Below are positions 28,288 through 46,705 of a stretch of 64,000 nucleotides of DNA, piece by piece. Under the pieces are notes generated by a model. It worked only from the letters and a program-made list of their open reading frames with translations. It did not search any database and was not told where the DNA came from. Every line of letters starts with the position of its first letter. Positions within the stretch are counted from its first letter, which is position 1. Source of the DNA: a virus; IMG/VR virus record IMGVR_UViG_3300042898_001439, positions 1 to 64,000 of that record, one strand, 5' to 3'. Both the position numbers and the translations under genes were made by a program.

Positions 28288-28330
28288 GTGCAAATAGCAT
28301 TATAAGTTTCATAAAAGTTGTTGGTTTATC

Positions 28331-28559: not shown

Positions 28560-31500
28560 TTATTTATTTCTAGCTTCAATGCTTATGAAGGTTTTTATAC
28601 CTTCACTAGGATCTACAGTTGTTCCTTTTATACCAACAAGTTTTGCAGTGTGATTCAAAACCTTGGCATCACCCTTTTGTTGGAATTCAAATGGTCCCAT
28701 ATCTCTACCATAGAAAGCTCTATCATCCTCACCAGCTAACTGCATTACGTCATTAATAATGCTTCCGTAAGCACCAAAGGTTGGAGCAATTACAATAGAA
28801 CTAGCATCTAATAGATTAGCATAATCAGTTAATCCAAAACTATACTGAGTTCCTTTATAGGCAACCGTAGGTAAAGGAATAAACTGTCTATTCTCAGCTT
28901 GAACAAGCATAGTTTGGTAAAGAGCATGGTTCATTAACCAGCCACCAAGATCAAATTCATATTCTGATTCTGCTACACCGGGTAGTTGGAGCGGTCCACT
29001 TCTTTTTCTAAGCTTTTCATATTTGTCCTCATCATCAAGGTCAAATCCAAAGGCAAACGTAGAGATAAGAGTAAGAGCCATCAATTGACCAATTTCAGCA
29101 ACAGTTTTAAGAGCTCCTCTTTTTTCTGATTCGGTAAAGTAAAAACCACCTTGACCAAGTCCACGCATTAGAGATACAAAGAAGTTTCCGAATTCTTTGT
29201 AGTAACCAGCGCTAACCTCAGCACCAGCTGCATTGAATCTTCTGTTACCAAATCTATGCATAAACATAGAAGTAAAATATCTTCTAAGGAATGATACAAA
29301 TCTAAATGCTAGATATCTCTGTGCTTCTGGTTGATCAAACTGGGCATAAGTACCTTGAAGCTTATTCATAAGATCGTGAGTCTTATTTACAAACAGCTTA
29401 AAGTTTTTACCACCTTTATCCCAGCTTTTATCTACTCCTTCTTTAAGAGTTAATTGTCCATCAACAATGTCCCAAGCGTCTACATAGTCAATCATTCTTG
29501 TTTCACCGTTCTGGGTAAATTCAATCTTTTGACCGTGCATCATAGAGAAGAAGAATTCCATTGAACCTTCAAGTTCCAAAACCTTTCTTGGAGAGAATAG
29601 TACTGAGCCTTCAGATAAATCTCTAAGCAAAGTTCTAGAACCAAGGTCTGCCATCTTCTGCTCAAATCTTCCTTGTACTGGATCAAACACTTCAACAAGT
29701 TGCACATTCAAACTCTTAGGGCCCTTTTTATAAATCTGAGAAGATATCTCACTAGTTACTTGCCAACCTTTAAGCTTTCCCTTAGTATAGTCTTTAGAAC
29801 TAAAATTACTACCACCAATTGCTTCAATGTTATTTTGAATGATTGCACCAAAGCGGTTCTTTAAAGCTGAAGGAATGTTACCTGCAAAGAATCTAAATGA
29901 AGCCAGACCAAATAAAGTACTAGATACTTTTTGTATAGTAGTGCTTTCTGAACCAAGACCGGTAAACTTAATACCTTCAAATTCTCTTTCAATAAGATTA
30001 TCAATAGCCTTAGCTCTTACAGATTCACCTTTCTTAGTAATTGGAGATATAATTCCCCTGTAGATATAAGCAGATCTGTTTACTTTACCCATGTCTTTAA
30101 CTCCATTTCTAGGATCTTTAAGAACCTTTTGAAGCGCTTTAACATGGGGGTTAATCTCAATCAATTTCTTTTGTCGCTCTACACTTGCCATGTACTTGAC
30201 CATAGAACCAACAACATCAAGAGATACTTGGTCTATATCAAGACGGTATTTACCTGCAACAGGGATACCGCTGATTTCATTGTCAAACATGTCTGCAGAT
30301 ACAAGATCAAAGTTTTCCTGGGTAAAGTTGTATCCATCTTCAGCATCGTCAGCAGCTCCTACAAACTGGGATTTGAGAGCTTTAGCTATAGAGGTAATGG
30401 CGCCTACTTTTTCTTTACCCTTCTCTGCAAGATTTGTAGTTCTGATAAACTCAAGGTTATGCTTTCTAAATCTTGGGATCTCTAAATACAGCTTAGCAGA
30501 CTTATTAGCACCCAACTGATTCTCTAAATGAACTTTACTAAGTGATTCTAAAGCTGCAAACTTTTCCGGACTGTTCTTTCTAAGAGCTTCGTAATCTTGA
30601 TTAATATACTTATCATCAATAGCTCCCTGCTGAACAGTCTTAGGTAGCCAGTAACCTCTGTTATCTACAGTCTCACCAACTACTTTCTTAGTTCTATACT
30701 GATCTTTAACTCTTGCATAGAAGAATTCTCTTTTGGGTATTCCCTGAACAACTTCTCCAGTGCTAAGCTCAGTAGTCTTAACAAATTCTTTTGCCGGAAC
30801 GTTTCTATTCCAAGCAAAGAGTCTTTGATATTTAGTTACTTCTTCTCCTGTACTGTAATCAAAGCGCTTAACTTGAACATGATTAGCTTCATACCAAGCT
30901 TTAAACTCTGGTGAAGCTTTTAGCAACGGATTAACAATAGTTGGTTGAAGGAGTAGATCAGCTGTTCTGTTGTTTACAGACTTAAACAGTACAGAGTTCA
31001 TCTCAGGATTGTTGAATCTAACCTGCTGGATCTTTTCATTTGCCAGTTCTACATAGTAATCTGTAGCAACTTTTGATTGCAGTTTACTAAGTTCAGAGTA
31101 AAGAGCGGACAATCTTCCTTTGTCACGCATTGTCATACGAGACATTTCCTTAGCTTGAAGAAGTACAGACATCTCGTCAATCTCTTCATCAGTAAGTTCT
31201 CTTTGTTCTTTCTGCTCAAGAAGTTCTTGAAGTCTATCAAACTCTGATACGGTAAGTCCGCTAACTTGAGCAAGCTTATCTCTAAGAAGAATGGCTTTTT
31301 CCTGAAGAGTTTTGATCTCCTCAATTCTAGCATCAGACATATCAGTCCCTACAATCTGACCATCCTCATCTTTAAAACCAGAGACAAGATCTACAATATC
31401 ATTATAGGTATCAGACACCTCTTTTGAGAGTTGACCTGACCCAGGATACTTGCTTAGAATCTGAGAAATCTCAGAGCTTGCTCTTTGCTTTCTTTCGTAA

Positions 31501-33929
31501 TACTCAGAATCAACAGCATATCTAGTGTTGTCTTCAATCCACTCTTTTCTCTTTTGCTCAAGTTCCGGACTACCGGGTTGCAAACCATTAGCAATCAATC
31601 CATCAAGATAGTCATTCAATCTTCCCTCAAAGACATCAATCATAGGAATCTGCTCATAGAACTTAGACGACTCCTCTCTGTATTGTCTGTGGAGATTTGC
31701 TTTCTCTAAGTCATTACCAGTCTTCTTGGTTCCATCAGGATATCTCAGTGAGAAAAGATTTGAGTACTGTGACCAAAGTTCTTTAACTCTGTCTTGGTGA
31801 TCTTGATCAACAGAAGTTTTAGATTGATCCAAAGCATCCATTTCATTCTGAACACTCTCTAGAATCTTCTCTCTTTCATATCTAGCTTCTGCACCTAGTT
31901 CACCAGCATCATCATAGATTTTATTCTTTTCGTAAAACTCATTGACATACTCTCTGTGCATGTAATTAGTTTCCCACTGCTGAAGTTCTTTCTTTTTATT
32001 ACGAGCTTCTTTGTTTTTACCTTCTTTGATAAGTTGCTCATACTCAAAGTTTAAGCGAATTCTATCTGCCTCATAGTTCTTAAACTGGTTTAGAAGTTTA
32101 ACAACTTGATACTCTTCAAGCTCTCCTTTGTCATTAACTCTTGTCTTATTGTCTATGAAAGTTAAAACCTTCATAAGCTCAGCAGGATTGCTAGCATCAT
32201 AACCAGCTTTGTCTAACTTAGACATAAGTTCGGTTGACATCTGATTTACCCTGCTTTGAACTTTTACTTGTACATCAATAAGATTATCCTTAAGATATTT
32301 AGCAAAGCCACCAACTATAATATCCGGGTTATTAATGTAGCTTTCAAGGAATGCAGAAAACGCATTAGTATCTCCAAGACTTCCTCTTAGAGTAGCTTTA
32401 ATCTTAGCTCTATCAAAACTAAACTTTTCCAAATCGGCTCTAAGCTTTTTAATCTTTCCAGCTGGAGCATTTGCTTTAATAGCTTTTTCTAGTTCAGCTT
32501 TTATGTTAGACTGAATGTTCTCTGATACAGTCTGAAGAGTATCCCAAAGCAAATCAGCACTTGCCTCAGTGTAAACGTTTACAATGTTTTTTTGAGATCT
32601 CTCAACAATACCCTTAATATTATCAATTAGATTAGCAATCTGTCCTGTGCTACTTAAACCACCTTCACTTAATACATCATTAGCGTGTTCAAGAAGCTTG
32701 TTCCAGTTACTGGTAAGATTATCTAAATAGTAAATCTTTTGAAAAGCTTCTTGAGTATCAAGTTGAGTAAGTTCGTTAATCTCAGTATCAATGAGTTTCA
32801 TCATCGCTTCAATCTTTCTCAAAGCAATAACAAACTGAGTAGCCCTTCTAGAAATAATCTCTGCATCAGCTGCAGCATCATCAATTACAGACTCTAAGCC
32901 AGATACTGTCTTCAGGGTATCTCTAACACCCTGAAGTAATCCTCTACCACTATCTTCGGCAAGTAGTTCTTTGATGAACTTCTGCTTTCCGCTTCTCTGT
33001 ATAGATCTAATCTGAGACGTTACTAGCTGAAAAGTATCCTCAACCGTTTGTACAAGTGCATCATTCTGCACTTTCTCAAGCTCTGCTTTAAGCTTTAGAT
33101 CATTAGCACGGAGATATGCAACATACTCTTCCTCACTAATAGAATCAGTATTGATCTCAAAGTTTTCACTCTTTAGCATCTCTGCCAAATCAGCAATCTT
33201 AGTATCAAGTGTGAGTCTCTCAACTTTTACCTTTCTACCAAACATGTTTCTAAACAGTTGCTTGATAGCATAGAGAACTTTCTGAATAAATCCGTTAGCC
33301 TGGAAGTCTTGTGCAGATACGTTCTTTTGTACAGCACGTACAATTGCCTCCTCAAACTTTAGATCTTGCTCTTCTTCACCATAGAGCTCTTCAACAATAG
33401 CATTAATCTGTGTATCAGCAATAGCTTCAGCTGCCAACCGGTCAAACAATGCTCTGTTTTCATTCTTAATAGCTCTAACTAATGGGTGAATAAACTCGTG
33501 GATTGCATCATCTGCACCAAATGCTCCGTCAAGCAAGTATACTTTACCACCAACAAAGAATGCTTTTTCACCTGACCAAGGATTCTTACTGTTCTTAGTC
33601 AGCTCAATTGCATCATCACCGCTAATAATCTGGTAATCAACTCCAAGCTTTTCTTGAAGGACATCCAAAATTCTAGCAGTAGTACCAGCAACAATAGCTT
33701 TACCACTAGTACCAATATTTAAATCAGGTATAGCTTGAACCGTTTCAAATTTTACAGTACCATCTGAAGACAAAAACTTTATAGTATCTCCTGGAACATA
33801 TGCACGACCTAATTCTTCTGTAGTAAGCAGGTCTCCTTTTTTAGCATAAGCACGGTAAGCTTCAAACTCACCAAGCTTATCTACCATATTAACCCACTCT
33901 TTGGAACTCTTGTTTGGACAAGCAATCAT
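28560..33929 (-). CDS. giant virion/ejected protein with N-terminal zincin-like domain
   Basis: 1789 aa; HEFIH...EEAIV; helical; hydrophobic C-terminal segments; adjacent to the virion RNAP as in crAss-like phages. Confidence 0.75.
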   Translation of the reverse strand: MIACPNKSSKEWVNMVDKLGEFEAYRAYAKKGDLLTTEELGRAYVPGDTIKFLSSDGTVKFETVQAIPDLNIGTSGKAIVAGTTARILDVLQEKLGVDYQIISGDDAIELTKNSKNPWSGEKAFFVGGKVYLLDGAFGADDAIHEFIHPLVRAIKNENRALFDRLAAEAIADTQINAIVEELYGEEEQDLKFEEAIVRAVQKNVSAQDFQANGFIQKVLYAIKQLFRNMFGRKVKVERLTLDTKIADLAEMLKSENFEINTDSISEEEYVAYLRANDLKLKAELEKVQNDALVQTVEDTFQLVTSQIRSIQRSGKQKFIKELLAEDSGRGLLQGVRDTLKTVSGLESVIDDAAADAEIISRRATQFVIALRKIEAMMKLIDTEINELTQLDTQEAFQKIYYLDNLTSNWNKLLEHANDVLSEGGLSSTGQIANLIDNIKGIVERSQKNIVNVYTEASADLLWDTLQTVSENIQSNIKAELEKAIKANAPAGKIKKLRADLEKFSFDRAKIKATLRGSLGDTNAFSAFLESYINNPDIIVGGFAKYLKDNLIDVQVKVQSRVNQMSTELMSKLDKAGYDASNPAELMKVLTFIDNKTRVNDKGELEEYQVVKLLNQFKNYEADRIRLNFEYEQLIKEGKNKEARNKKKELQQWETNYMHREYVNEFYEKNKIYDDAGELGAEARYEREKILESVQNEMDALDQSKTSVDQDHQDRVKELWSQYSNLFSLRYPDGTKKTGNDLEKANLHRQYREESSKFYEQIPMIDVFEGRLNDYLDGLIANGLQPGSPELEQKRKEWIEDNTRYAVDSEYYERKQRASSEISQILSKYPGSGQLSKEVSDTYNDIVDLVSGFKDEDGQIVGTDMSDARIEEIKTLQEKAILLRDKLAQVSGLTVSEFDRLQELLEQKEQRELTDEEIDEMSVLLQAKEMSRMTMRDKGRLSALYSELSKLQSKVATDYYVELANEKIQQVRFNNPEMNSVLFKSVNNRTADLLLQPTIVNPLLKASPEFKAWYEANHVQVKRFDYSTGEEVTKYQRLFAWNRNVPAKEFVKTTELSTGEVVQGIPKREFFYARVKDQYRTKKVVGETVDNRGYWLPKTVQQGAIDDKYINQDYEALRKNSPEKFAALESLSKVHLENQLGANKSAKLYLEIPRFRKHNLEFIRTTNLAEKGKEKVGAITSIAKALKSQFVGAADDAEDGYNFTQENFDLVSADMFDNEISGIPVAGKYRLDIDQVSLDVVGSMVKYMASVERQKKLIEINPHVKALQKVLKDPRNGVKDMGKVNRSAYIYRGIISPITKKGESVRAKAIDNLIEREFEGIKFTGLGSESTTIQKVSSTLFGLASFRFFAGNIPSALKNRFGAIIQNNIEAIGGSNFSSKDYTKGKLKGWQVTSEISSQIYKKGPKSLNVQLVEVFDPVQGRFEQKMADLGSRTLLRDLSEGSVLFSPRKVLELEGSMEFFFSMMHGQKIEFTQNGETRMIDYVDAWDIVDGQLTLKEGVDKSWDKGGKNFKLFVNKTHDLMNKLQGTYAQFDQPEAQRYLAFRFVSFLRRYFTSMFMHRFGNRRFNAAGAEVSAGYYKEFGNFFVSLMRGLGQGGFYFTESEKRGALKTVAEIGQLMALTLISTFAFGFDLDDEDKYEKLRKRSGPLQLPGVAESEYEFDLGGWLMNHALYQTMLVQAENRQFIPLPTVAYKGTQYSFGLTDYANLLDASSIVIAPTFGAYGSIINDVMQLAGEDDRAFYGRDMGPFEFQQKGDAKVLNHTAKLVGIKGTTVDPSEGIKTFISIEARNK

Positions 33930-36900
33930 GATTTACAATTCTTAATTAGGTCAAGTACGTCTTGATCAGTTACATCTTGTGTTGTTTGAACAGCCTCTCT
34001 ATATGTAGCACTAGGTGCATTGTTTGTTGGGAGTACACCAAAAGTATTAGTAAACTCCTCAATAAACACAGTGTAGTATTCGGGTTTACCCTCAAATACA
34101 TCTGAGTATAAAGAAGAGTCCATAACAGGTGTCAAACCCTCACTATTAAGATACTGCAATTTCTGGAAAGCTTCTCTAACACTTTCACGGAATTCCTCAA
34201 GGGATACCGCAGATGGTAATTTAAATGAAGCAGCATTTTTAACGTTTCTACCAGCAGCTTCTAAAGTCTTAGCTAGAGGAATAGCATATGCAAACTTGGG
34301 ATTCTTAACTGCAGTTTCTAATGGATTCTTAGCAGTATAGTTAGTAGCGCTGAGAAGTATGTTTGTGCCTTCAATGTAGTTTTGTTGAATAGCACTGTAC
34401 TCCGACAAATAGTTATTTACAGAACTTCTATAGACATATTCTTGAGCACCACTTTCATCAAACTTTACAAACTTTGTGGTTAATCCTTTTAAGTACTCAG
34501 ATATAGATTCACCTTTACTAGCAACAAATTGCTGCATTAAAGATGAGTAATTATTATCTGGTGCAATCTTACCAAGATTGTATTCACCAGAGGTAAATCC
34601 ATTCTGAAGGAATGCTATAGTTGTGAACTGAGAGAAGAAGTCAGATATTTTCTTATTTTCTTTAGCATCAGATACCTTTTGTATAGATGGATCAGCAAGA
34701 GCCACGAGATTATCATGATAAGAATCCAGAACTTCGGCCTCAGTAATTCTAGTAGATAGCTTGAGTCTGTCAATACCATTTGTTCTATTAAACACCAAAT
34801 CATCTAGTACTGGGTACTGACTGGTTAATTCAGGATGCTTTTCTACAATACTAGTAAAAGTGCTAGCATAGCTTCTTGCTTCATCTGAAGAAGAGAACAT
34901 GTACCAAAGATTGTTTGAGTTTCTTAGTGCAGCATCTCTAAGCTTAGCCTCATACTGCTCTTGAGTCTCGGTCTCCAACTTTGTTGTAATAGATCTTAAG
35001 TACTCTCTTTCAAGAGTAAAGTTGTAATACTGATCAAAGCTATTCTTACCATTAATGGTTTTGAAGTTAAAAGCAGAAGGATTAACTCTTGCTCTATCAA
35101 ACTTAGTAAGACTAGTATTTATATTCTGAAGATCTCTTCTAAGTTGTGCAGGGTCTACATAAAGAATACCATTCTTTATAGTAGCACCAGCCTCTAGAGA
35201 TACTTTCTGAATTGGTAATCCCTTATATTCTTTAGTAGAAAGGTCTGCTCCCAGTAGTGCTTCTTGGTAAACAGCGGTAAATATTTGAGACAAAGCATTT
35301 GAAATACCTGACTCTTTGTTTTCTGCAAAAGCAAATGTCTTAGTAATAAAATCTACTACTGCAGGGTTGTTTCTTATTGCAAAGAAATCCCAAGCTTCTT
35401 TTTGAGAATACGACGCTTTTGCAAAACTCTTTAAGATCTTATTACCGTAGTATTTAGAAGCAGTTTCTTCCGGAACAATATTATATCTACCACCAGCAAG
35501 TGCTTTCTGAACATTACCCTCTCTAAGATTTAGAGCAAAAGAATTGTTAAATGTGCTTGTATCAAAGTTTGAAGAAAGCTTTAGACCTGTAATATCATCA
35601 CTAACAGCCTCAAGTTGTAAGAAGTGAGCAAATGCTTCTAATTGTAATTGATCTGAAGCAGCACCAGTAGACAGTTCTGTAAGTTCACTTTCTGAAAATG
35701 ATTTATTATTTCTTTCTTTTTTCAAAAAGTTAAGAGCGCTATTCAAATAATCAAGCTTTCCGGAGCTAGCTTTTGCAGCCGCAGTAGCCCTTCTTCTTGT
35801 TTTAGTAGTTGCTGCTGTAAGATTAAAGGGAGAAGTTTGTAGTTTAAACTCTTCTACATATGACTTTACAAGAGGATTAGAAACAAAGTTTATAGCTTGT
35901 CTTAAAGGAACTCCAGCTCCAAGCATAAACAATAAAACCGGACCCGCAATATTATTACCCTGAACTTCAAAAATCCAAGCATCTTTTTCTACGTCTACCC
36001 AACCATTCATAAGCTGAGCAATGATATCACCAATACTTTCTTTTTGCATAGTTCTAAGTCTATCCATTACAATAGCACCATCTTCAGAATTATGCGGAAG
36101 TAAAATATTATTATCAAATTCAAACTTTTTCGCACCTAGCGAATATTGTATTTTTAAAGAAAGTTTAAATCCTGTTCTATTCATTACAGTATTATTGGTA
36201 TTATCTACTGCAGCAATACCTAATACCATTTTGCCCACCCCGTTACTTTCGTGTTTATTAAGATTGTAACCAACCTCAATAATTTTAAGAGGAGAATTGC
36301 TCCAGTTAAACTTCTTGTTGTAACCCTTTGCAGCAAACTCATCAGCAATAGGTTTAACCATGTCTGTTGCGTTAGGTCTGATAAGGTTTACAAAGTTTTC
36401 TGGAGATTCAAGAATCTCAACTACACTCTGAATAATATTATTCTCTACCCCCTCGATAGTTTCCTCTGACAGATCTAGTATTAGCTCTCCGTTCTTAACC
36501 TTGATATTAGGCATCATAACGGTAAGCTTGTCAATATCAAAGTCACCACCAGATTTAGTTGTAATCTCGTAGGGTAGTACAATACTGATACCACTCTCTT
36601 CGGGTAAGAACTCTGCAACCTGCATAAACTCCATAGAATTGTGACCCTGTACTGGAATACGTACAGCAATCATCTGAAGCATCTCTTTATAAAGAACGTT
36701 GAATGAGGTCTTTTTAATCATCTCATTCAATCTTTCAAGAGTACCGATCTCTTTACCGTCATTGTGGTTAAGCTTCAACAGCTCCTTAAATCTACCCTGC
36801 AAAGCAATCTTAACCTCCATAGGTTCTGTAATGTCACCAGCTTTACGGTAGAACTTAAGTTTAGACTCACCCTCAGTACCAATCTTTTCAAAACCAACAC

Positions 36901-39900
36901 CAGATACTTGTACGAGTGATTCACCGTTTACCTTAGTGCGGATAACCTCGTTAGCCACAATAGAATAAAGAGCTTTTTCAATCTCGTTTGCAGCTAGAGA
37001 AAAGTCAAGAGCTGATTTTAAATTACCGTTTCCAGCTTGCTCTACATAATCTACAACATGCTGAGGAAGCTGACGCTGCTCCAGCTTTTGCTTTAAATAA
37101 GTAAGAAGCTTGCTTGTATCTGTAACAGTGTAGCTACCATTTTCTTTTGCAATACCAATCTCAGTGTAGAGTTTCTCAAGCTTAAGCGTAACCTGCTTTT
37201 CAACAAGTGCTTCATATTGATCTACAAGTCTTTCTGCATTCTTAGATACCGGCTTACCACCATCATACATATACTGAAGAATAAGCTTTCTCAACTGAGT
37301 AGAGAATCTAACTTCTTCTTTAAATGAATCAGAAATATTTACCTGATCTTTCAAGAACGGTAGGTGAACCTGATATGTATTGAGCGGACCCTCTACAAAC
37401 TTGCCATCAGCATCTACAAACTTTGTTGCAGGCTTACCATCGGCAAGCTTACTACCAGACTTAAATGTCACATAGTGCACATTCTGTCTAACCATCTGAT
37501 TATGCAATTGCTCAAGGTTAGTACCTTTTACAACGGAGGGAACCAGTGGGAATAGTGAGAACTTATGAAAAGCGTATACAGCAAGATTAGAAGTTTGGAT
37601 AGGTCCAAAGTACTGATACTTTAAAGGAGGGAATGTTTTAAGAATCTTATTAGGATCTACAGCCTCACCGTTAGCAATCTTTTTATAAAGATCTTCTTGT
37701 TGTGGTGACCACTTACCAAGAAGTTGTCTTGAAGCTTTATAAAAATCAAAGCTAATGTAACCCTGACCATCAGCAGCGTTGGTTTCTTTATACCCGTCAA
37801 GATATTTAGTATCAAGACCTGCAGCTTCAAATGCTTTTGTATATTCAGCAAATAGCTTAGGATTTGATTCTTCCATATTCTGAATCAAATCTTCAAGTAC
37901 GGCAACGTTTAACACACCATCAAAGGGGTTAATAGTAAAGCCTTCTTGTGCTGCTAGTCCTTTTGCATATTGGAATCCTGTTCTTGTTACATGATCAAAT
38001 GCTTTCTTGTTCATTGTATGAACATCACCGGTAGAAGCTACACCAGCATTACGCTTGTGGAAGTCATCTTTTGCATGATTGTACAGTGCAGCATCACCAT
38101 AAAGAATAGGTAATACTTCAAGATTATGAATAAGAGCATTAGCAGTATAAGCAGCTACTGCTACATCATTACTAACACCGGCAAGATTTCTAAGACTCTC
38201 TGATTTAAATGGAAGACGAGCAAAGATTTCTTTATTATTATTTATCTGACCAACAACATACTTTGCCAAAGCTTGATTAATCTTTTCAGATAGCTCCGTA
38301 TTAGCGTTAATCTGAGAAAGAATATCTCTATTATAGTCAAGAGCCATAAGCTCGTCCTTAGAGTCTTTAAGAATATCACCAAACAAAGTAAGATCTTTTG
38401 CTTTATCTGTGTAACCTGGAATATCTACATCCTGATTAATAACTGTAAGAGCTCGTGTTACTTCATTAGCAACATGCTGTTTCATTAAGTCAACAGTAGC
38501 CTTGATACCACGATCATCAGCAAATCTATTTATATCTACGTAAAGATGTGGGTTGTTTGTATTGTACTTAGTACTCAATCTAGCACCTTTAACTGCATAA
38601 GCACTGGATTTAGAAGCATGACGCATAAGCTCCATATCACCGGAGCTAAGCATTGCATTCATATCATAGATAAACTTGCTGTAAGGATCAAGAGCTGTTG
38701 TAGATATACCTGTAGATCTATCACTATCAATAAGCTTTACACCATTGAAGTTAGAAAGCTCAAGCTTTCCTCCAGGTATTCTCTCACCAAACTTAACTCT
38801 TACTGTTTCACCAGTAGCGGGATTTCTGTACGACGTAAACTCCTTGGTGATATCAAGATTAAATACAGATCCTAAGATGTGGTTACCCTTAAGCATAGGA
38901 TTCTTTGTAATATCCCAGCTTGCCATATGTGGCATCTTAACGATATCTTGGTAAGTCAACTCAGGATTGTTAATCATAGAAACAATCTGAGTAATAGTAT
39001 TATTCAGAGAGTATTCATTCTGAGGATTGTTCTCAGCGTTAAGAACTTGACCCATCAAAGCTTTATCAGAAGAAAGTCTTCTGTAATCTAATAGGTCATT
39101 AATAAGCTTAGCATTACTCTCAAGCTCAAGATCTTTTCTAGTCTGCTTTAGAGTTGATACAGAATTAGCAATACCAGTAAACTCCGGTGACTTAGAATCT
39201 TTAGCGTAGATCTTATTGAGTGCAGGACGCAAGTAAGTATTTACTCTATTAGTAAACTTCTTTAGATCTTCTCTAACAATAGCAGTGTCATCAAAGTAAA
39301 TACCAATTGCCTGAAGGTAATCGTATACGTTTGCATGTGTTACAGCTTTAAAGTCTTGATTGAGTTTTGTTACATTCAAGACAGTACCTGCACTAGTCTT
39401 AGTTACATAAGGATTTACTTCTCCACTAATCGTTTGACCAAGAGTAAACAGTCTATGCCACTCTCTTTCTACCTTTTTATTATCACCAATAGCACGACCA
39501 AAAGTCTCAAGAGTTTTACCCTCAGCTTTAGTAACAGTCATTTCCTTAATAGGAATCTCGTACTTATTAAATGTCTGGTAGAACTTTGTCCACATAGATA
39601 GACCAGCATCGCTAACAATAACTAAAGGATCTCCAAGCTTATCCGCAACTTGGTTTAGCATAGAGTTTTTAGAAGACTTGAGAATCTCATACATCTTCTG
39701 CTCATTGTAACCCTTACCTGATACAGCTTTGGCTACTTTCTTAAATACTTCTTCTCCGCTATAGAGTTTAGGTAGACCAAAGTAATTCGTCGTATCAGCT
39801 TTAATACTGCGAAGAGTGTACATAATTACCGGATCCGCATAATCAACCAGTGTACCTTCAGTTCCAGATCTATCTTGAAGCTGAGTGTAGTCCATTGTGT

Positions 39901-41248
39901 CATTCTCATCAATATCAAGAATATCAGCAACAGACTTTGCAGTAATCTTAAAATCAAGATACTTACTACGCTTCTTATGGTATGCAATCGTACCGGTAGC
40001 ACCACGCTTGGATGCAGAAACTACATCACCATAGTTATTAATAGCAAAGTCAAGAGCATTTAGTTTTTCAATTAGTTGCTCTCTTTCAATTGGATCAATT
40101 GTAGCTTCTACTCCTGCAGCTACTGCACTGCGTACAGCTTTTAAACCTGACAGAGCTACATCATACACAGACTTAAGAGTTTCTTCTGTAGAGAAGAGTA
40201 CGCTTACAGGTAGATTGTTTTTATCAAGAGCTTCAGAGATGAAGTAATCAATTGCCTCAACCACAGCCAAAGACTGAGTAGAAGTCAAAGATGTTTGCTT
40301 GTCTTCAATTCCGGTTAAACCTTTATTAAGAAGACCAAACTGTACATTATCAAGAGACGGTTTAAGATTTAAGGTATGACCCTTATAAAGGTTATCATAC
40401 ATCTCTTGTATACTAACAAGAGCAGTCTGCTTGCTGAGAGCTTCTCTTGCAGATACTCCGCCAAAGAGTTGCTTCAAGAATCTAAGAAGCTTTCTAAAAA
40501 TTGTATTTCTTTCTGGACGCTTACCAAGTACAAGCTTACCATCAGACAAAAGATATTTTCTAAAATCTTCTGCAAGTGTTTCTTCTACCTGAAAATCGGT
40601 AAGCTTAGAACCAAGAACCTTTCTTGCTTCATTGTATAGAGCTTGCTTCTGACCTTTTGTAAGATATAACTGGCTGAATCCGTGAAAAGCTTCGTGGTAG
40701 ATATCAGTGTAGTTAGCACCATGAAATAGTGTGATACCATACTGAGTCCACTGTGCAAACGCATTACTGTTTACCACATTGAATGCTTCTTGCAAACCAA
40801 TGTTCTTACTCAGAGGGCTTTTATCCCACCATTCTTTAGCAGCTTTTACCTGATCTACAGTAGCTTGGTTATCATTACCCTTAAGCTTAAAGAGATACCA
40901 ATCGTCATAAGTAATACCGGAACGCTCTGCATCTTGACGTTGAACATTTCTAGCATCTTCACGCTCTTCATACTTTCTAAAGACACGATCTACAAATGCC
41001 GGATCGGGTGTAATGTCAATGTACTTCTGACCATTATCCTCAAATGCAATCTTTGCAGCTTTACCACCAAACAAGTCATTGATTTGGTTTACAGCTTTAG
41101 CTATAGCATTACTTTTTTGTCCTGCCTGATTAATACCAATATAAGTAATAGAATTAGTAGACTCTAGATATTCTCTAGCGCTTTCCTTGATTCTTTTTAC
41201 AAATTCAATCCGGATACTCTCCTCAATATCAAGCGAACATAGTCTCAT
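33926..41248 (-). CDS. virion RNA polymerase (single-chain, crAss-like / phi14:2 gp66 type) with N-terminal zincin-like domain
   Basis: Catalytic GGDFDIDKL (about 36525-36550), RIPVQG and ADGQGY motifs; N-terminal YHEAFH...EETLAEDF. Confidence 0.92.
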   Translation of the reverse strand: MRLCSLDIEESIRIEFVKRIKESAREYLESTNSITYIGINQAGQKSNAIAKAVNQINDLFGGKAAKIAFEDNGQKYIDITPDPAFVDRVFRKYEEREDARNVQRQDAERSGITYDDWYLFKLKGNDNQATVDQVKAAKEWWDKSPLSKNIGLQEAFNVVNSNAFAQWTQYGITLFHGANYTDIYHEAFHGFSQLYLTKGQKQALYNEARKVLGSKLTDFQVEETLAEDFRKYLLSDGKLVLGKRPERNTIFRKLLRFLKQLFGGVSAREALSKQTALVSIQEMYDNLYKGHTLNLKPSLDNVQFGLLNKGLTGIEDKQTSLTSTQSLAVVEAIDYFISEALDKNNLPVSVLFSTEETLKSVYDVALSGLKAVRSAVAAGVEATIDPIEREQLIEKLNALDFAINNYGDVVSASKRGATGTIAYHKKRSKYLDFKITAKSVADILDIDENDTMDYTQLQDRSGTEGTLVDYADPVIMYTLRSIKADTTNYFGLPKLYSGEEVFKKVAKAVSGKGYNEQKMYEILKSSKNSMLNQVADKLGDPLVIVSDAGLSMWTKFYQTFNKYEIPIKEMTVTKAEGKTLETFGRAIGDNKKVEREWHRLFTLGQTISGEVNPYVTKTSAGTVLNVTKLNQDFKAVTHANVYDYLQAIGIYFDDTAIVREDLKKFTNRVNTYLRPALNKIYAKDSKSPEFTGIANSVSTLKQTRKDLELESNAKLINDLLDYRRLSSDKALMGQVLNAENNPQNEYSLNNTITQIVSMINNPELTYQDIVKMPHMASWDITKNPMLKGNHILGSVFNLDITKEFTSYRNPATGETVRVKFGERIPGGKLELSNFNGVKLIDSDRSTGISTTALDPYSKFIYDMNAMLSSGDMELMRHASKSSAYAVKGARLSTKYNTNNPHLYVDINRFADDRGIKATVDLMKQHVANEVTRALTVINQDVDIPGYTDKAKDLTLFGDILKDSKDELMALDYNRDILSQINANTELSEKINQALAKYVVGQINNNKEIFARLPFKSESLRNLAGVSNDVAVAAYTANALIHNLEVLPILYGDAALYNHAKDDFHKRNAGVASTGDVHTMNKKAFDHVTRTGFQYAKGLAAQEGFTINPFDGVLNVAVLEDLIQNMEESNPKLFAEYTKAFEAAGLDTKYLDGYKETNAADGQGYISFDFYKASRQLLGKWSPQQEDLYKKIANGEAVDPNKILKTFPPLKYQYFGPIQTSNLAVYAFHKFSLFPLVPSVVKGTNLEQLHNQMVRQNVHYVTFKSGSKLADGKPATKFVDADGKFVEGPLNTYQVHLPFLKDQVNISDSFKEEVRFSTQLRKLILQYMYDGGKPVSKNAERLVDQYEALVEKQVTLKLEKLYTEIGIAKENGSYTVTDTSKLLTYLKQKLEQRQLPQHVVDYVEQAGNGNLKSALDFSLAANEIEKALYSIVANEVIRTKVNGESLVQVSGVGFEKIGTEGESKLKFYRKAGDITEPMEVKIALQGRFKELLKLNHNDGKEIGTLERLNEMIKKTSFNVLYKEMLQMIAVRIPVQGHNSMEFMQVAEFLPEESGISIVLPYEITTKSGGDFDIDKLTVMMPNIKVKNGELILDLSEETIEGVENNIIQSVVEILESPENFVNLIRPNATDMVKPIADEFAAKGYNKKFNWSNSPLKIIEVGYNLNKHESNGVGKMVLGIAAVDNTNNTVMNRTGFKLSLKIQYSLGAKKFEFDNNILLPHNSEDGAIVMDRLRTMQKESIGDIIAQLMNGWVDVEKDAWIFEVQGNNIAGPVLLFMLGAGVPLRQAINFVSNPLVKSYVEEFKLQTSPFNLTAATTKTRRRATAAAKASSGKLDYLNSALNFLKKERNNKSFSESELTELSTGAASDQLQLEAFAHFLQLEAVSDDITGLKLSSNFDTSTFNNSFALNLREGNVQKALAGGRYNIVPEETASKYYGNKILKSFAKASYSQKEAWDFFAIRNNPAVVDFITKTFAFAENKESGISNALSQIFTAVYQEALLGADLSTKEYKGLPIQKVSLEAGATIKNGILYVDPAQLRRDLQNINTSLTKFDRARVNPSAFNFKTINGKNSFDQYYNFTLEREYLRSITTKLETETQEQYEAKLRDAALRNSNNLWYMFSSSDEARSYASTFTSIVEKHPELTSQYPVLDDLVFNRTNGIDRLKLSTRITEAEVLDSYHDNLVALADPSIQKVSDAKENKKISDFFSQFTTIAFLQNGFTSGEYNLGKIAPDNNYSSLMQQFVASKGESISEYLKGLTTKFVKFDESGAQEYVYRSSVNNYLSEYSAIQQNYIEGTNILLSATNYTAKNPLETAVKNPKFAYAIPLAKTLEAAGRNVKNAASFKLPSAVSLEEFRESVREAFQKLQYLNSEGLTPVMDSSLYSDVFEGKPEYYTVFIEEFTNTFGVLPTNNAPSATYREAVQTTQDVTDQDVLDLIKNCKS

Positions 41249-43056
41249 TACTTACAAGAGTTTTGTTTTCCTTTATTAATGTTTTCGGTAATCTTGGAAT
41301 CAACAGACTCCTGTATATTAAAGGTAGCACCTAATCCTTGATTAACAATGCTTTCTTTAAGTTGATTAGCAACAGCTTCACCTATAGAGACTAAGTCTAA
41401 TTGAAAAGACGGAGCTTTAACAACATCTGATTTTTGTTTTATTTTAACTTTTGAAACTGGTTCAGTTTTTACCTCTACTGCTTTTTGAGTTTCTAACTGT
41501 AAAGCAGGATCAAATGAAAGATTAAAGTAAGGTTTAGTAGTCTCCTCCAATCTTGCTGTAGTATTAAAATACTTAAGCATGTAATCAGTAGCAGATAGCG
41601 TATTATACTTCAAAGAATTTTGATCGTAATAAGGAATATCTACAGAGCCATTTGAACTAATGGGTGCATTGGCTCTATAAGTTGATGTTACAACACCTGA
41701 TGCAGATTCAGTAACAGACTTCAAAATTTGAGTGAGTGCTTCTTCTGTAACAGGTTGTCCTTTATAGAGAATAGCCGTCTCTCTTACTCTAATGTCTTTT
41801 GTAAATAACAAAGACTCAAAAATTTCTTTTTTTGTTTGATAGGGAACAGAAGTATCAAAAAGATATTTTGCTAAGATCTCAGCAGGTATTACATCTGTAA
41901 TTCCAGGTCTATCAATTCTAATTAATTTATTAGAAAAAGAAACATTAAAATATGCTCTTCCTGTCGCAGGATCTACTTCATAAATAAACTCTTCTCCAAA
42001 AGACTTAAAATCAATCTCAGAAAGTTTTATTGGATTACCGGAATCAAAGGTTACAGAAGCTCCAGCACTAGTATTAATATCTAGATAAATCTTTTGATCA
42101 GGATTAACCTGCAAAGCTTCTCTAATATTATATAAAGTACGATATTCTTTTTGTCTTGCCTCTTGAGCTATGTCAATATCTACTCCAGCCGCAGATGCAA
42201 CTTCTGATATAGGTGCTTCTCCTTTTACGGTAAATACACCATTAACCAAGGAAGGCTTATTTATAACATATTGTGGAGTTGTACCCTCTTCAGCAATATT
42301 ACCGGCAGCATCTACTTTAACAGGATTACCCTCAGCATTAACAATAATAGCTTTTACTCCGGCATATTCAGGATTAGCTTCAAGAAAATCTTTTTCTCTT
42401 GTAGGTATTTCACCCTCAAAAGATCTTGAATCAATTATCTGAATACGTAAACTACTATAAACAGAATCATTTGTTTTTTTACCCTGATGATACTTAGCAA
42501 TAAACTGTTGAGAAGCCTGTATGATTGGATCAATATTTCCTTCCGGTATAACATTAAATGCTGTTAAAGCACTTTTACCAACAGCTTTAAAAGGAACAGA
42601 AATAGCAGACTTATTTGTAGGCACTGCTGTACCTAATACAACTTCTGAAGATGCTCCTAATGTTTCGTCTTCTTGTAGATCTAAGCTAGCTTCATTATTT
42701 GCAAGAACCTCTTCTTTCTTTTGTTCTGCTGCTTCATTACCAATACCCAAATAAGTACCTACAGCATCAAAATTTTCAAACGTATCTCTAAGCATATCAA
42801 ACTCTGCAAAAGCAGGTCTAAGATGCTTTACTGCTTCTTTGTTTACAGAATAGATTGCTACTAAATTATTCGGAATAAACGATGCAAATGTCTGAGCCTT
42901 TGCTCGGTCACCGGTCTTTTCAAAGATTTGTTTGTACGTATCCTTGATGTAATTCTCTAAAGAAAAGGATTGACCTGAACGTGCAGACGCTAGTACGTCT
43001 CCCACCATCTTGGCAAGAAACTTTTCTTTCAGCTTATCAGAAACAGCACAAATCAT
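41248..43056 (-). CDS. virion/ejected protein (602 aa)
   Basis: Translationally coupled within the giant-gene block; Cys only at the termini. Confidence 0.7.
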   Translation of the reverse strand: MICAVSDKLKEKFLAKMVGDVLASARSGQSFSLENYIKDTYKQIFEKTGDRAKAQTFASFIPNNLVAIYSVNKEAVKHLRPAFAEFDMLRDTFENFDAVGTYLGIGNEAAEQKKEEVLANNEASLDLQEDETLGASSEVVLGTAVPTNKSAISVPFKAVGKSALTAFNVIPEGNIDPIIQASQQFIAKYHQGKKTNDSVYSSLRIQIIDSRSFEGEIPTREKDFLEANPEYAGVKAIIVNAEGNPVKVDAAGNIAEEGTTPQYVINKPSLVNGVFTVKGEAPISEVASAAGVDIDIAQEARQKEYRTLYNIREALQVNPDQKIYLDINTSAGASVTFDSGNPIKLSEIDFKSFGEEFIYEVDPATGRAYFNVSFSNKLIRIDRPGITDVIPAEILAKYLFDTSVPYQTKKEIFESLLFTKDIRVRETAILYKGQPVTEEALTQILKSVTESASGVVTSTYRANAPISSNGSVDIPYYDQNSLKYNTLSATDYMLKYFNTTARLEETTKPYFNLSFDPALQLETQKAVEVKTEPVSKVKIKQKSDVVKAPSFQLDLVSIGEAVANQLKESIVNQGLGATFNIQESVDSKITENINKGKQNSCK

Positions 43057-43057
43057 T

Positions 43058-46000
43058 TTAACACTCGTTTATATTATCAAAGAAGTCTTCATCAAGATCT
43101 TCTTTAGGTTTAGAAGCAGCATCATCAATAATTCTATTCTGCTTATTCATCATATCCTCACTAGTAGGAATAGATTCTTCGGCAAGAGTCTTCTCCTCTT
43201 CTGTAACAGCAGGAATAACTTCTCCGGCATCTGACCCAAGTTCAGCTTTTCTTTCAGCAATTCTAGTCATAATAACGTTTGCGGTTGCATCATCAAGATC
43301 TCCATCAAGGGATACCTCTGATTCAATTCTTTTAAGATCGGCAATAGATGTAGCTGACTCTACTCTAGCAGAATATTTATTTGTAGTTGGTGTCTCAGCA
43401 AAAGCTTCTTCTGCAGTTGCCGGAACAATTCCTGTTTCTTCTACTTGAGGATTAGCAGCAAAATATTCTCTAATTCTAGCTTGTGGAGTTGGGAATGTAG
43501 CGTACTGAACCACACTTCTAATAAGGTTCTCATCATTGGCTCTACGCTTAGCATTCTCACGCTCAAACATATTATCAATAATGTCCTTAAGTTCTTGCGG
43601 TAGATCAGAATACTGGTATTTCTGAGTTGGCCCTGCAGGTTCTTCAGTAGTAACTCTTACGGGCTCTGCAAATTCAGTTGCAACAGTAGGTGCTTCTTCA
43701 GTCGGAGTAACTGGTGTTTCTAAAACACCCTCTTCAGTCTGTACTTCTTCTTGTGGTTTAGCTCCAAACTCAGGTGCAAACAGACCAAGAAGATTTCTTA
43801 CAGATGCAGCCTCTTCAGAGTTAATGTCTACTTCTTTTCTACCTCTAACAGTATAAAGTTTAGTAGGCATCTTGCCCTCATCAAAGTATGCTTTTAATTC
43901 ATCATAACCAATAAAGTATCCACTCTTGTAGATTTGATTAATGATCTCATTCTTTTGAGCATTCTTTTTAAAGAGATCTAAAGACTTGCCAAGATATACT
44001 CTCTTATTTACAATAACATCTTCAATGGCAGCAGCATTTCTTCTTGCATATTCAGTTAGTCTTTCTGGACTGTTCAATGCATTAATAGCATCAATCAAAC
44101 CAAACTGATCTCTACCCAGAGCAATTGAATCTACAATAGACGTAATATCACTATCAATGTTTTGTGCATTTACTCTAGCACCTTTAGCTGTCAGACCTGC
44201 ATAAGCAGCATAAGCTTCTCTAAGACCTTCTATTGCTTTTGCTCTTTTCTCTTGAGCTGCTTCAGATATATCAGATGCATTTTTGCCAGTAATAAGTTTT
44301 TCATATCTCTGACGGGCAATCCTGTATTTATCAAGAGCCTTTCTTTTAGCTTTCTTTTCTGCAAGTAGTTGCTTTTGTTCAGGAGTAGTTGCTTCAGCAA
44401 GAACTTCCTTACTTAAAAGATCTAGTTCATTAGTTAATGCGGGAAGACTAGTAACCACATCAACATCAGAGGATGTAGTATTACCAGAAGTATTACGTTT
44501 AGAAATATCAGTCTTTAATGATTCAAATCTTTCTTTAGTCTTTTCTTGAGTTTCCTGTAAGAATATCAAATCTCTTTTAGCTTGCTCATATGAAAAGTGA
44601 TTAAGTCTTACTCTATTGTAAGCATCACTACCAGCAGCATATTGAGAAGCATCAAAAGGATTACCGTATTGCTTTTCTACTTCTTTAAATTTTTTCTGAA
44701 GATTGTCAGCATATACTACGGTCTCAGTAATTCTTTGTCTAGCTTCAGCAGCATCATCTAAACCAGTTGCCTCCATAACACCTTGATCATCAAGCTGTTG
44801 TAAAGAAGCAAGCTTCTGTTTAAAGTTATCCATTTGGCCTGTCTGAAGAACAGTCATCAAGTGACCAAAACGAAGTTCTTCAAGAACGTCTTTTGCTTTC
44901 TTCTCATCACCTTGTTGCTTAGCCTGCTGCCACTCAGCAAGAGCTTTACTCTGATCAATGTAGTTCTTGATTCTAGGATTGAAAAGAGAATAAACATCTT
45001 TAGATCCGTTATTAAGAATATCAACAAGCTCCTGAGTTCTTTCAGCTTGTTGTTGATTAAGTGTTCTGATTTCTTCTCTACCGGTAGAAGTTGCAGACTT
45101 CATAAGTCTAGATAACTTATTACCACCAACTCCAGTTATTCCACCAATAAACGCACCTGACATAAAGGTTTCCAAACCTTGTGCTGAAAACTGATCAGCA
45201 AGTGCTTCACTACTATATCTTCTAAGGGCAGGATCTGCTGCAAGATTTAGTACTTCACCAACACCATCAAATGTTCCTCTCATATCTTGAAAAGGAATAT
45301 TCAACGGATCTGATAGTATGCTACTATAGTAATCTTTATAAGACTGTGATACAATCTCCTGGAAGTTTTCTTGAAGACCTTCTGATACTGCAGGTAAAAA
45401 TACGTTTCTACCAAATCTAGAAATAGATCCAGCAGTAAATGCATTTCTTAATCCATTCTTAAAGCCTTTACCAACTGTCTCATATACACCATTTGCAGTC
45501 TGACGAATGCCATACTTAGAAAGATCAGATGTCATATCACCAGCCTTACCAAATACTCTTGAAGCAGTCTTACCCATTCCAAGAAGTGGCTTCATTACAA
45601 TAGCATCGGTAAGATAAATAACTGGAAGGTTAGCCATTACAGCTCTGTCACCAGCTTCTTTAGAAGCTTTAGAAATATTCTCAAGCTCTTCAGTTGACGG
45701 CATTACACCAAACTGATCATAATAATTATTAAGAGCTTCTCTATATAGTTCATTCTGAACAAAGCCACCTTCTAATTGAGCTTCAGTAGCCGCCGCTTTT
45801 ACAAGCTGTACTTCTTTAAATAGGGCCCCGGCACCACGAACAGCAGAGGGTAAATCTTCTCCAATAGCAGCAGCTTTAAAAGCATCACTAACATACTCAC
45901 TCATATTAGGCATTACTACTTTACCAATACCACCAGCTCCAGATTTAATCCAGTTTGGTGTGCTAGCTGAAATTGCATTTAATGCTGAAGCAGCTTTAGA

Positions 46001-46705
46001 AGGAGTAGTAATATCATCTAATGCGCTAACAACTCTTCCTGCTTTGATAGCATCATCAACTTTTGATATACCTCTAACACCTTGGAATATTTTTGAACCT
46101 AGCACACCAACACCGGCTTCAGGTCCAAGTAGCGCAGATGCAATAACACCCTCACCAAGACCTTCTACAACCATACCAGCCATAAAACCAAGATTAATAG
46201 CATTGTTTGCAAGAAATCCCTGTACTCCACCCTCTGTAGAACCATAAAGTCTATTTATCTCTTCAAATCTAGCAGCAGCTGCAGGATCTGATTCAAACAT
46301 AGTGTCCCAGTTTCCAGTAATAAGATCATAAGTACCTTCTGCCATATCAGCAGCAGTGGTTGCTGTATTAAGCAACATGCCCTGAAGACCTCTACCAATC
46401 TCTCCCCAAGCACTTGAGTGAGCATTATAAAGAGATTCATTATCAGCATACGGAGTAAATCCTAGCTCATCAAAGTTTGATCTACGAGCATAACGATAGT
46501 AGTTTGTCTCATGCAAACCAAAAGGTTCCGGAGCTTTTAACTCTACTAAAGGTTTAACATCTGCTTGAATTGAAGGTGTCCAATTAGGATTTGTAGAAGA
46601 ATTTTCTTTAATAAGTCTTTGTAATACAGGATCACCATATCCTTGAAGCTTACGAGGATCTGGCAAATTATCACCGCTTATACTTTGTAGTGAATTTAAA
46701 TCCAT
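43058..46705 (-). CDS. large virion/ejected protein with Gly/Ala-rich hydrophobic helices
   Basis: 1215 aa; potential membrane helices (LGFMAGMVVEGLGEGVIASALLG, FMSGAFIGGITGVGG), EGLQENFQ, long coiled coils. Confidence 0.7.
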   Translation of the reverse strand: MDLNSLQSISGDNLPDPRKLQGYGDPVLQRLIKENSSTNPNWTPSIQADVKPLVELKAPEPFGLHETNYYRYARRSNFDELGFTPYADNESLYNAHSSAWGEIGRGLQGMLLNTATTAADMAEGTYDLITGNWDTMFESDPAAAARFEEINRLYGSTEGGVQGFLANNAINLGFMAGMVVEGLGEGVIASALLGPEAGVGVLGSKIFQGVRGISKVDDAIKAGRVVSALDDITTPSKAASALNAISASTPNWIKSGAGGIGKVVMPNMSEYVSDAFKAAAIGEDLPSAVRGAGALFKEVQLVKAAATEAQLEGGFVQNELYREALNNYYDQFGVMPSTEELENISKASKEAGDRAVMANLPVIYLTDAIVMKPLLGMGKTASRVFGKAGDMTSDLSKYGIRQTANGVYETVGKGFKNGLRNAFTAGSISRFGRNVFLPAVSEGLQENFQEIVSQSYKDYYSSILSDPLNIPFQDMRGTFDGVGEVLNLAADPALRRYSSEALADQFSAQGLETFMSGAFIGGITGVGGNKLSRLMKSATSTGREEIRTLNQQQAERTQELVDILNNGSKDVYSLFNPRIKNYIDQSKALAEWQQAKQQGDEKKAKDVLEELRFGHLMTVLQTGQMDNFKQKLASLQQLDDQGVMEATGLDDAAEARQRITETVVYADNLQKKFKEVEKQYGNPFDASQYAAGSDAYNRVRLNHFSYEQAKRDLIFLQETQEKTKERFESLKTDISKRNTSGNTTSSDVDVVTSLPALTNELDLLSKEVLAEATTPEQKQLLAEKKAKRKALDKYRIARQRYEKLITGKNASDISEAAQEKRAKAIEGLREAYAAYAGLTAKGARVNAQNIDSDITSIVDSIALGRDQFGLIDAINALNSPERLTEYARRNAAAIEDVIVNKRVYLGKSLDLFKKNAQKNEIINQIYKSGYFIGYDELKAYFDEGKMPTKLYTVRGRKEVDINSEEAASVRNLLGLFAPEFGAKPQEEVQTEEGVLETPVTPTEEAPTVATEFAEPVRVTTEEPAGPTQKYQYSDLPQELKDIIDNMFERENAKRRANDENLIRSVVQYATFPTPQARIREYFAANPQVEETGIVPATAEEAFAETPTTNKYSARVESATSIADLKRIESEVSLDGDLDDATANVIMTRIAERKAELGSDAGEVIPAVTEEEKTLAEESIPTSEDMMNKQNRIIDDAASKPKEDLDEDFFDNINEC

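Follow-up and report, generated by a model that had tools for sequence, protein, structure and literature searches.

Facing terminal cysteines suggest a disulfide-linked chain of cargo proteins, including the virion RNA polymerase, in a crassvirus

How crassviruses, the most abundant human gut phages, pack and deliver a protein cargo of approximately 700 kDa that includes an RNA polymerase (RNAP) is a standing question, and in structural papers up to 2026 their ejection proteins are unresolved (PMC10172136, PMC13434306). This question takes a specific form in a 64,000-nucleotide stretch of viral DNA (positions 1 to 64,000 of IMG/VR virus record IMGVR_UViG_3300042898_001439; hereafter, the window), which is part of a 78.7-kb record with an estimated completeness of 66%. 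Four consecutive genes on the minus strand of the window, which we call A1, A2, B and C, encode long proteins, with the virion RNAP third in line, whose cysteines occur only where the end of one protein faces the beginning of the next. Why are the cysteines there and nowhere else? We propose that the facing terminal cysteines probably form inter-protein disulfides that join A1-A2-B-C as one thread.

Protein A1 (43058-46705, minus strand; 1215 aa, 133 kDa), protein A2 (41248-43056; 602 aa, 66 kDa), protein B, a crAss-type virion RNAP (33926-41248; 2440 aa, 274 kDa), and protein C (28560-33929; 1789 aa, 203 kDa) are encoded by tightly coupled genes, with spacings of +1, -1 and -4 nt at the A1/A2, A2/B and B/C junctions, respectively. 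Together they contain six cysteines in 6,046 residues, each at one facing terminus. The sole cysteine of A1 is its last residue, 1215 (codon 43061-43063); A2 has only Cys 3 (43048-43050) and Cys 601 (41254-41256), B has only Cys 4 (41237-41239) and Cys 2438 (33935-33937), and the sole cysteine of C is Cys 4 (33918-33920). We verified these coordinates and found that all six codons are TGT. Read across the junctions, with a slash marking the stop of the upstream protein, the peptides are ...NINEC/MIC... (A1/A2), ...NSCK/MRLC... (A2/B) and ...NCKS/MIAC... (B/C), and the outer ends of the chain, namely the N-terminus of A1 and the C-terminus of C, are free of cysteine. Much of this had been described in a first-pass annotation of the window, and the gene lengths, the confinement of the six cysteines to within four residues of a terminus, their pairing over the junctions, the quoted junction peptides, the cysteine-free outer ends and the absence of cysteine from a 929-aa protein encoded upstream were all confirmed, down to the exact positions. 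The chain mass of approximately 670 kDa given there is also close to the 676 kDa that we computed by summing the four proteins.

Among the other open reading frames (ORFs) of the window that reach 150 aa, most have a cysteine content of 0.4-2.3%. With six cysteines scattered randomly over 6,046 residues, the probability that each of the six facing termini would receive one within four residues is approximately 6e-17, and chance placement was rejected on this basis.

By sequence, protein B is the Crassvirales virion RNAP (two-barrel, phi14:2 gp66 type). Its residues 1081-1603 match chain A of PDB 6VR4, the phi14:2 virion RNAP (E = 6.6e-30), which bears out the polymerase that the first-pass annotation had placed in this block. 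The DFDxD motif has been named as defining for the crassvirus virion RNAP (preprint 10.1101/2020.03.07.982082), and protein B carries it as the catalytic motif DFDID at residues 1569-1573 (36530-36544). Using tblastn, we matched protein B to 114 phage records at 22-26% identity, nearly all of them labelled as crAss-like or as uncultured faecal phages. The RNAP cargo proteins have been shown to be present in the virion of crAss001 (PMC10172136), and for the RNAP itself, presence and ejection are known only for phi14:2 and crAss001; by homology to those enzymes, protein B is presumably also carried in the virion and ejected into the host. Protein C is homologous to the post-polymerase proteins DAC15 gp077, crAss001 gp49 and phi14:2 gp076. 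PHROG and Pfam scans of A1, A2, B and C gave no family match, and A2 found no match by tblastn against a phage collection or in two IMG/VR scans using its sequence or alignment.

The terminal cysteines are retained in close relatives of the window. Six metagenome loci (L006-L011) at 60-92% identity keep the junctions ...NINEC/MIC..., ...NSC[KN]/MRLC... and ...NCKS/MIAC... and have no internal cysteine. Exactly two cysteines, the third residue and the penultimate one, are found in 14 of 17 A2 homologues down to 53% identity, and the remaining three deviate only at an uncertain or cut end. In protein C, a cysteine at position 3 or 4 is present in all 24 homologues, down to approximately 20% identity, with six internal cysteines among them in all.

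To extend this across Crassvirales, we gathered 79 IMG/VR loci with the protein C alignment, took adjacent long ORFs as junctions and removed duplicates (n = 68). A junction counted as paired when the upstream protein had a cysteine among its final 10 residues and the downstream protein had one among its initial 8. Both cysteines were present at 64 of the 68 junctions, and there was no junction with a single cysteine; the other four were cysteine-less, three of them lying between unrelated downstream genes of one locus and one being an apparent frameshift. The first-pass annotation had missed no internal cysteine in the block, and its expectation that the terminal cysteines would be co-conserved in pairs held at the scale of the order. 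Over 140 proteins comprising 335,897 residues, we counted 135 terminal cysteines and only 37 internal ones (0.011%), compared with 1.26% cysteine in control opposite-strand ORFs from the same contigs, of which 3.5% had an N-terminal and 5.2% a C-terminal cysteine. In alignments of 44 sequences with 11-36% identity to the window protein, the terminal cysteine is the one column without variation over the C-terminal 220 residues of B, and C4 is likewise the one such column over the N-terminal 320 residues of C.

Named crassviruses follow the same pattern. In phi14:2 (gp078-gp077-gp076 in GenBank numbering), gp078 has Cys 1797 of 1797 residues, the RNAP gp077 has Cys 3 and Cys 2179 of 2180, and gp076 has Cys 3. 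In crAss001, gp47 has Cys 2339 of 2341 residues, the RNAP gp50 has Cys 5, Cys 1334 and Cys 2404 of 2412, and gp49 has Cys 5. DAC15, cr118_1, cr6_1 and cr108_1 also obey the terminal-cysteine rule. The cargo blocks of phi14:2 and crAss001 are therefore like that of the window in having homologous B and C proteins with the same cysteine pattern; they are unlike it in that they consist of three proteins rather than four, with an A/B break that comes after an HExxH region, and in that the first gene of crAss001 is on the other strand.

Genes that are separate in the window are fused in other phages, and we asked what becomes of the cysteines there. We searched an A2-family profile against 1.84 billion representative proteins and found that it matches the N-termini of 25 giant proteins (25 clusters) of 3,069-4,441 aa; a word-indexed search for longer A2 forms had found none. 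All 25 are collinear A2+B fusions that include the HExxH region, and the DFDxD motif is present in all but one. Every one of them has a cysteine at positions 3-5 and another within eight residues of the end, with seven internal cysteines in approximately 87,000 residues, and in none of the 25 is there a pair at the fused junction. Because these 25 fused relatives have no pair there, the A2/B gene break in the window coincides with an extra cysteine pair. Extra splits in three further lineages (L087, L092 and L093) each come with a cysteine pair of their own. The position of the A/B break also differs, preceding the HExxH region of B in the window phage and following it in crAss001, and a cysteine pair is found at each break. 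These results bear on the question raised in the first-pass annotation of whether gene fission and fusion gain and lose cysteine pairs: the junction pair is missing from the A2+B fusions, and additional splits carry additional pairs. What is particular to the window is a four-protein chain in which comparison with fused relatives connects the additional link to a gene fission. The giant fused RNAP polyproteins share their domain content and domain order with the window proteins, and they are linked by a peptide bond where the window has a split at the gene level; a preprint by Drobysheva et al. suggests that such giant polyproteins are cleaved. Other fusions join A+B (cr118_1 and cr6_1) or B+C (p-crAssphage and crAss002).

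The same comparisons bear on whether the conserved element is a protein residue or a stretch of nucleotides. The uniform TGT codons of the window are no more than 12 nt away from a stop/start overlap, as would fit a nucleotide-level junction signal, for example for translational coupling or RNA structure, or a by-product of start-codon choice or chance. We give these readings a negligible probability. Two proteins, crAss001 gp47 and DAC15 gp078, have their genes on the other strand from those of their partners and still carry the C-terminal cysteine, and across junctions both TGC and TGT are used at gene spacings of -4 to +154 nt. Moreover, the giant fused proteins keep only their outer cysteines, which speaks against these readings. 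Since opposite-strand genes keep the cysteine while codons and spacing vary, the signal is in the proteins and not in the DNA junction; a DNA-level junction signal was rejected, as it is contradicted by these non-adjacent genes.

Interruptions of a gene that leave the polypeptide uncut have no cysteine pair. The RNAP gene of cr108_1 (MT774385.1) is split by a group I intron (L014 19775-20093; RF00028, 80 bits, E = 1.1e-20) located directly after the catalytic motif, and the record annotates two coding sequences; a cysteine pair is absent at this break. Frame changes inside protein C in two loci (L071 8808-9200 and L043 4797-4825), which are probably sequencing errors and possibly programmed frameshifts, are also without a pair. 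Terminal cysteines are thus of use in annotation, as they mark true starts and tell real protein breaks from introns and frameshifts. In two Intestiviridae records, the annotated start of the RNAP fusion apparently lies too far upstream (CrAssphage ZA, L005 16938-17010; crAss002, L012 15241-15345); an internal Met-Ser-Cys at residues 22-24 and 33-35, respectively, fits the M-x-C pattern with which other crassvirus polymerases begin, and translation probably starts there. Intestiviridae also encode a smaller upstream cargo-like protein with one cysteine near its C-terminus, namely Cys 794 of a 795-aa protein in CrAssphage ZA (L005 6044-8431) and the single Cys 550 of 557 residues in crAss002 gp30 (L012 4546-6219). 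In both cases, the next protein has no obvious N-terminal cysteine partner, and these proteins may link to a partner elsewhere.

How might such cysteines serve the phage? In the mechanism that we propose, A1, A2, B and C would form a packaged and ejected cargo block, and each protein, once inside the particle, would have its C-terminus next to the N-terminus of its successor. One cysteine per side would then allow an inter-protein disulfide at each junction, giving a linear thread of approximately 676 kDa with A1 as its presumed first link and C as its last, a covalent counterpart to the one-piece giant polyproteins of related phages. With each cysteine 0-5 residues from the chain end, each joint would add little to the width of one polypeptide and could go through the portal and tail unfolded. 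Each protein would pull the next through, so that the thread would fix both the order and the completeness of delivery, and the reducing cytoplasm would separate the proteins again, freeing the RNAP. We infer the order of the links, their disulfide nature, the order of ejection and the release by reduction from the cysteine pattern, its conservation, the pairing, and the split or fused status of the genes. From the rule one can predict the contacts between ends and the order of the proteins along the chain, and the rule would also explain why the cargo genes split and fuse freely. Thioredoxin-annotated genes are found near replication genes in CrAssphage ZA (L005 31385-32664) and cr108_1 (L014 31052-31321); these could be relevant to reducing the proposed bonds once ejection has taken place, or may just serve ribonucleotide reductase.

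The idea is not without precedent, as a single link between terminal cysteines is already documented in cyanophage A4. Cryo-electron microscopy of this phage revealed that, in the pre-ejectosome inside the capsid, gp27 and gp26 are joined by a disulfide from Cys1715 of the former to Cys5 of the latter, a bond that the authors did not treat as a general rule (PMC12002296). We examined the genome of this phage (Anabaena phage A-4L) and found that Cys1715 and Cys5 are the only cysteines of the 1717-aa and 1114-aa proteins, which are encoded by consecutive genes. Like the window, then, A4 has sole cysteines near the facing ends of consecutive ejection proteins; unlike the window, it has one link rather than three, no RNAP, and a five-fold pre-ejectosome ring. 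Homology of the window proteins to A4 gp26 and gp27 was rejected (best BLASTP E = 0.09, no similarity), and by this comparison the resemblance is one of how the system works and not of shared family. In crAss001 virions, disulfides have been reported in other structural proteins, of the tail and portal vertex (PMC10172136).

The pairing and the split and fusion data would fit any cysteine-mediated link equally well, including one in which the facing cysteines bridge the chain ends, still end to end, through a shared metal ion, which the first-pass annotation had named as an alternative. Metal hooks formed by two chains are known in general. We consider a metal bridge unlikely in the present case. 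Each side offers a single invariant residue, and the neighbouring positions hold no conserved His, Cys, Asp or Glu as a partner. A pair of thiolates is by itself a poor ligand set for Zn or Fe, except where two junctions come together; in addition, A4, the sole solved case with the same signature, is a disulfide. Because only one residue is conserved per side, a metal bridge is less likely than a disulfide.

A different possibility is that the terminal cysteines act separately, the N-terminal one capping the zinc of an HExxH site in the manner of a cysteine switch, or each one anchoring its protein to another virion component. Both B and C do have an HExxH motif 140-180 residues after the N-terminal cysteine: HEAFH at residue 185 of B (40682-40696) and HEFIH at residues 144-148 of C (33486-33500), where H144, E145 and H148 are nearly invariant among homologues. 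When we modelled the first 320 residues of C (mean pLDDT 69), the N-terminal nine residues were placed with fair confidence (mean pLDDT 81 over residues 1-10), as would be compatible with a role of this cysteine within its own protein. The best fold matches of the model were mainly zincin-type peptidases at modest scores (Z 5.5-6.2), and a Foldseek search of the PDB found nothing at E <= 0.001; the modelled fold of this N-terminal domain (phi14:2 gp65 orthologue type) may resemble that of zincin proteases. The two HExxH regions of the block appear to be related to each other. A hidden Markov model (HMM) of the C N-terminal domain matches the cr108_1 A+B protein at its HExxH region (E = 8.7e-8). 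Residues 163-235 of B, around HEAFH, are similar to a C-terminal portion of crAss001 gp47 (E = 2.6e-6), and overlapping stretches within residues 127-318 of B match internal parts of A+B fusion proteins. Each HExxH region lies just after a chain joint, which raises the question of whether these regions cut the fused forms.

Even so, separate roles for the terminal cysteines are improbable. They would leave unexplained both the strict pairing, with 64 junctions having both cysteines and none having one, and the cysteine-free outer ends of the chain. A1 and A2 carry terminal cysteines but have no HExxH, and the A2+B fusions are without both junction cysteines though they retain the HExxH region. 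The N-terminal motif of C is M-x-x-C-P-N and not the PRCGxPD of matrix metalloproteinase cysteine-switch zymogens.

Linkage of the four proteins head to tail by disulfides, as the first-pass annotation had suggested, came through each prediction that could be tested at the level of sequence, i.e., conservation, pairing, fused forms, introns and frameshifts, and non-adjacent genes. The bond itself is another matter: in crassviruses the disulfide is inferred from sequence, and several observations weigh against it. Particles assemble in a reducing cytoplasm and the gut habitat is anoxic, which makes the timing and route of oxidation a difficulty for the proposal. The Intestiviridae B+C fusions of p-crAssphage and crAss002 retain one cysteine near the expected junction (residues 2241 and 2140, respectively), as separate roles would allow. 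The HMM of the C N-terminal domain has no match to these two fusions, and their junction cysteine could not be aligned to the N-terminal cysteine of C; if the two are homologous, this cysteine may have a further role. Lastly, when we compared the A1 and A2 family HMMs with the A proteins of phi14:2, crAss001, DAC15, p-crAssphage and crAss002, the best E value was 0.015, which is not significant, and hhalign of the A2 family against phi14:2 gp078 returned a probability of 0.2%, so that homology is not established. The equation of A with A1 + A2 + the HExxH region may hold, on the basis of length and gene order. A complex predicted for the C-terminal 220 aa of B with the N-terminal 320 aa of C, using an alignment of 44 rows for each, scored 0.26 against a mark of 0.32, which we take as evidence neither for nor against binding.

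Strong depletion of cysteine is also seen in the Schitoviridae (N4 and DEV), whose ejection operon, like the window block, encodes packaged and ejected proteins. Suppression of cysteine in N4-like ejected proteins has been explained by passage through the envelope (PMC11445570). Unlike those of the window, the N4-type proteins have essentially no cysteine even at their termini, and their polymerase is of an unrelated fold family (PMC13434306). The window proteins are thus not of the cysteine-free type represented by N4 gp50 and DEV gp71-73, as they have no internal cysteines but a conserved cysteine at each facing terminus. Full-text searches found no paper describing terminal cysteines in crassvirus cargo proteins; these covered the crAss001 atlas, the phi14:2 preprint rather than its final Nature version, and the DEV and N4 papers.

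A broader form of the disulfide proposal would cover the whole order and, independently, at least one cyanophage. Ejected cargo would be joined by terminal disulfides as a reversible covalent polyprotein, genes would be free to split and fuse as long as covalent continuity is kept, and the change in redox conditions between particle and cytoplasm would be the switch that releases, and perhaps activates, the RNAP. We regard this generalization as evenly balanced between holding and failing.

Finally, we characterized the genes on either side of the cargo block. Upstream, two minus-strand genes (46709-49498, 929 aa; 49568-51487, 639 aa) encode proteins with no cysteine in 1,568 residues; these are also cysteine-free in relatives and had no above-threshold family match. 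By their position, they may be further ejected cargo, lying outside the cysteine chain. Directly downstream of the block, a minus-strand gene (26359-28293) encodes a 644-aa protein that lacks cysteine and has a signal-peptide-like N-terminus. It matches the Cohesin domain of Pfam (E = 7.3e-9) and, at its C-terminus, the sorting domain of the type IX secretion system (T9SS; TIGR04183, E = 2.6e-7). As a putative phage-encoded T9SS substrate, this protein points to a Bacteroidota host, and it is possibly displayed on the host surface.

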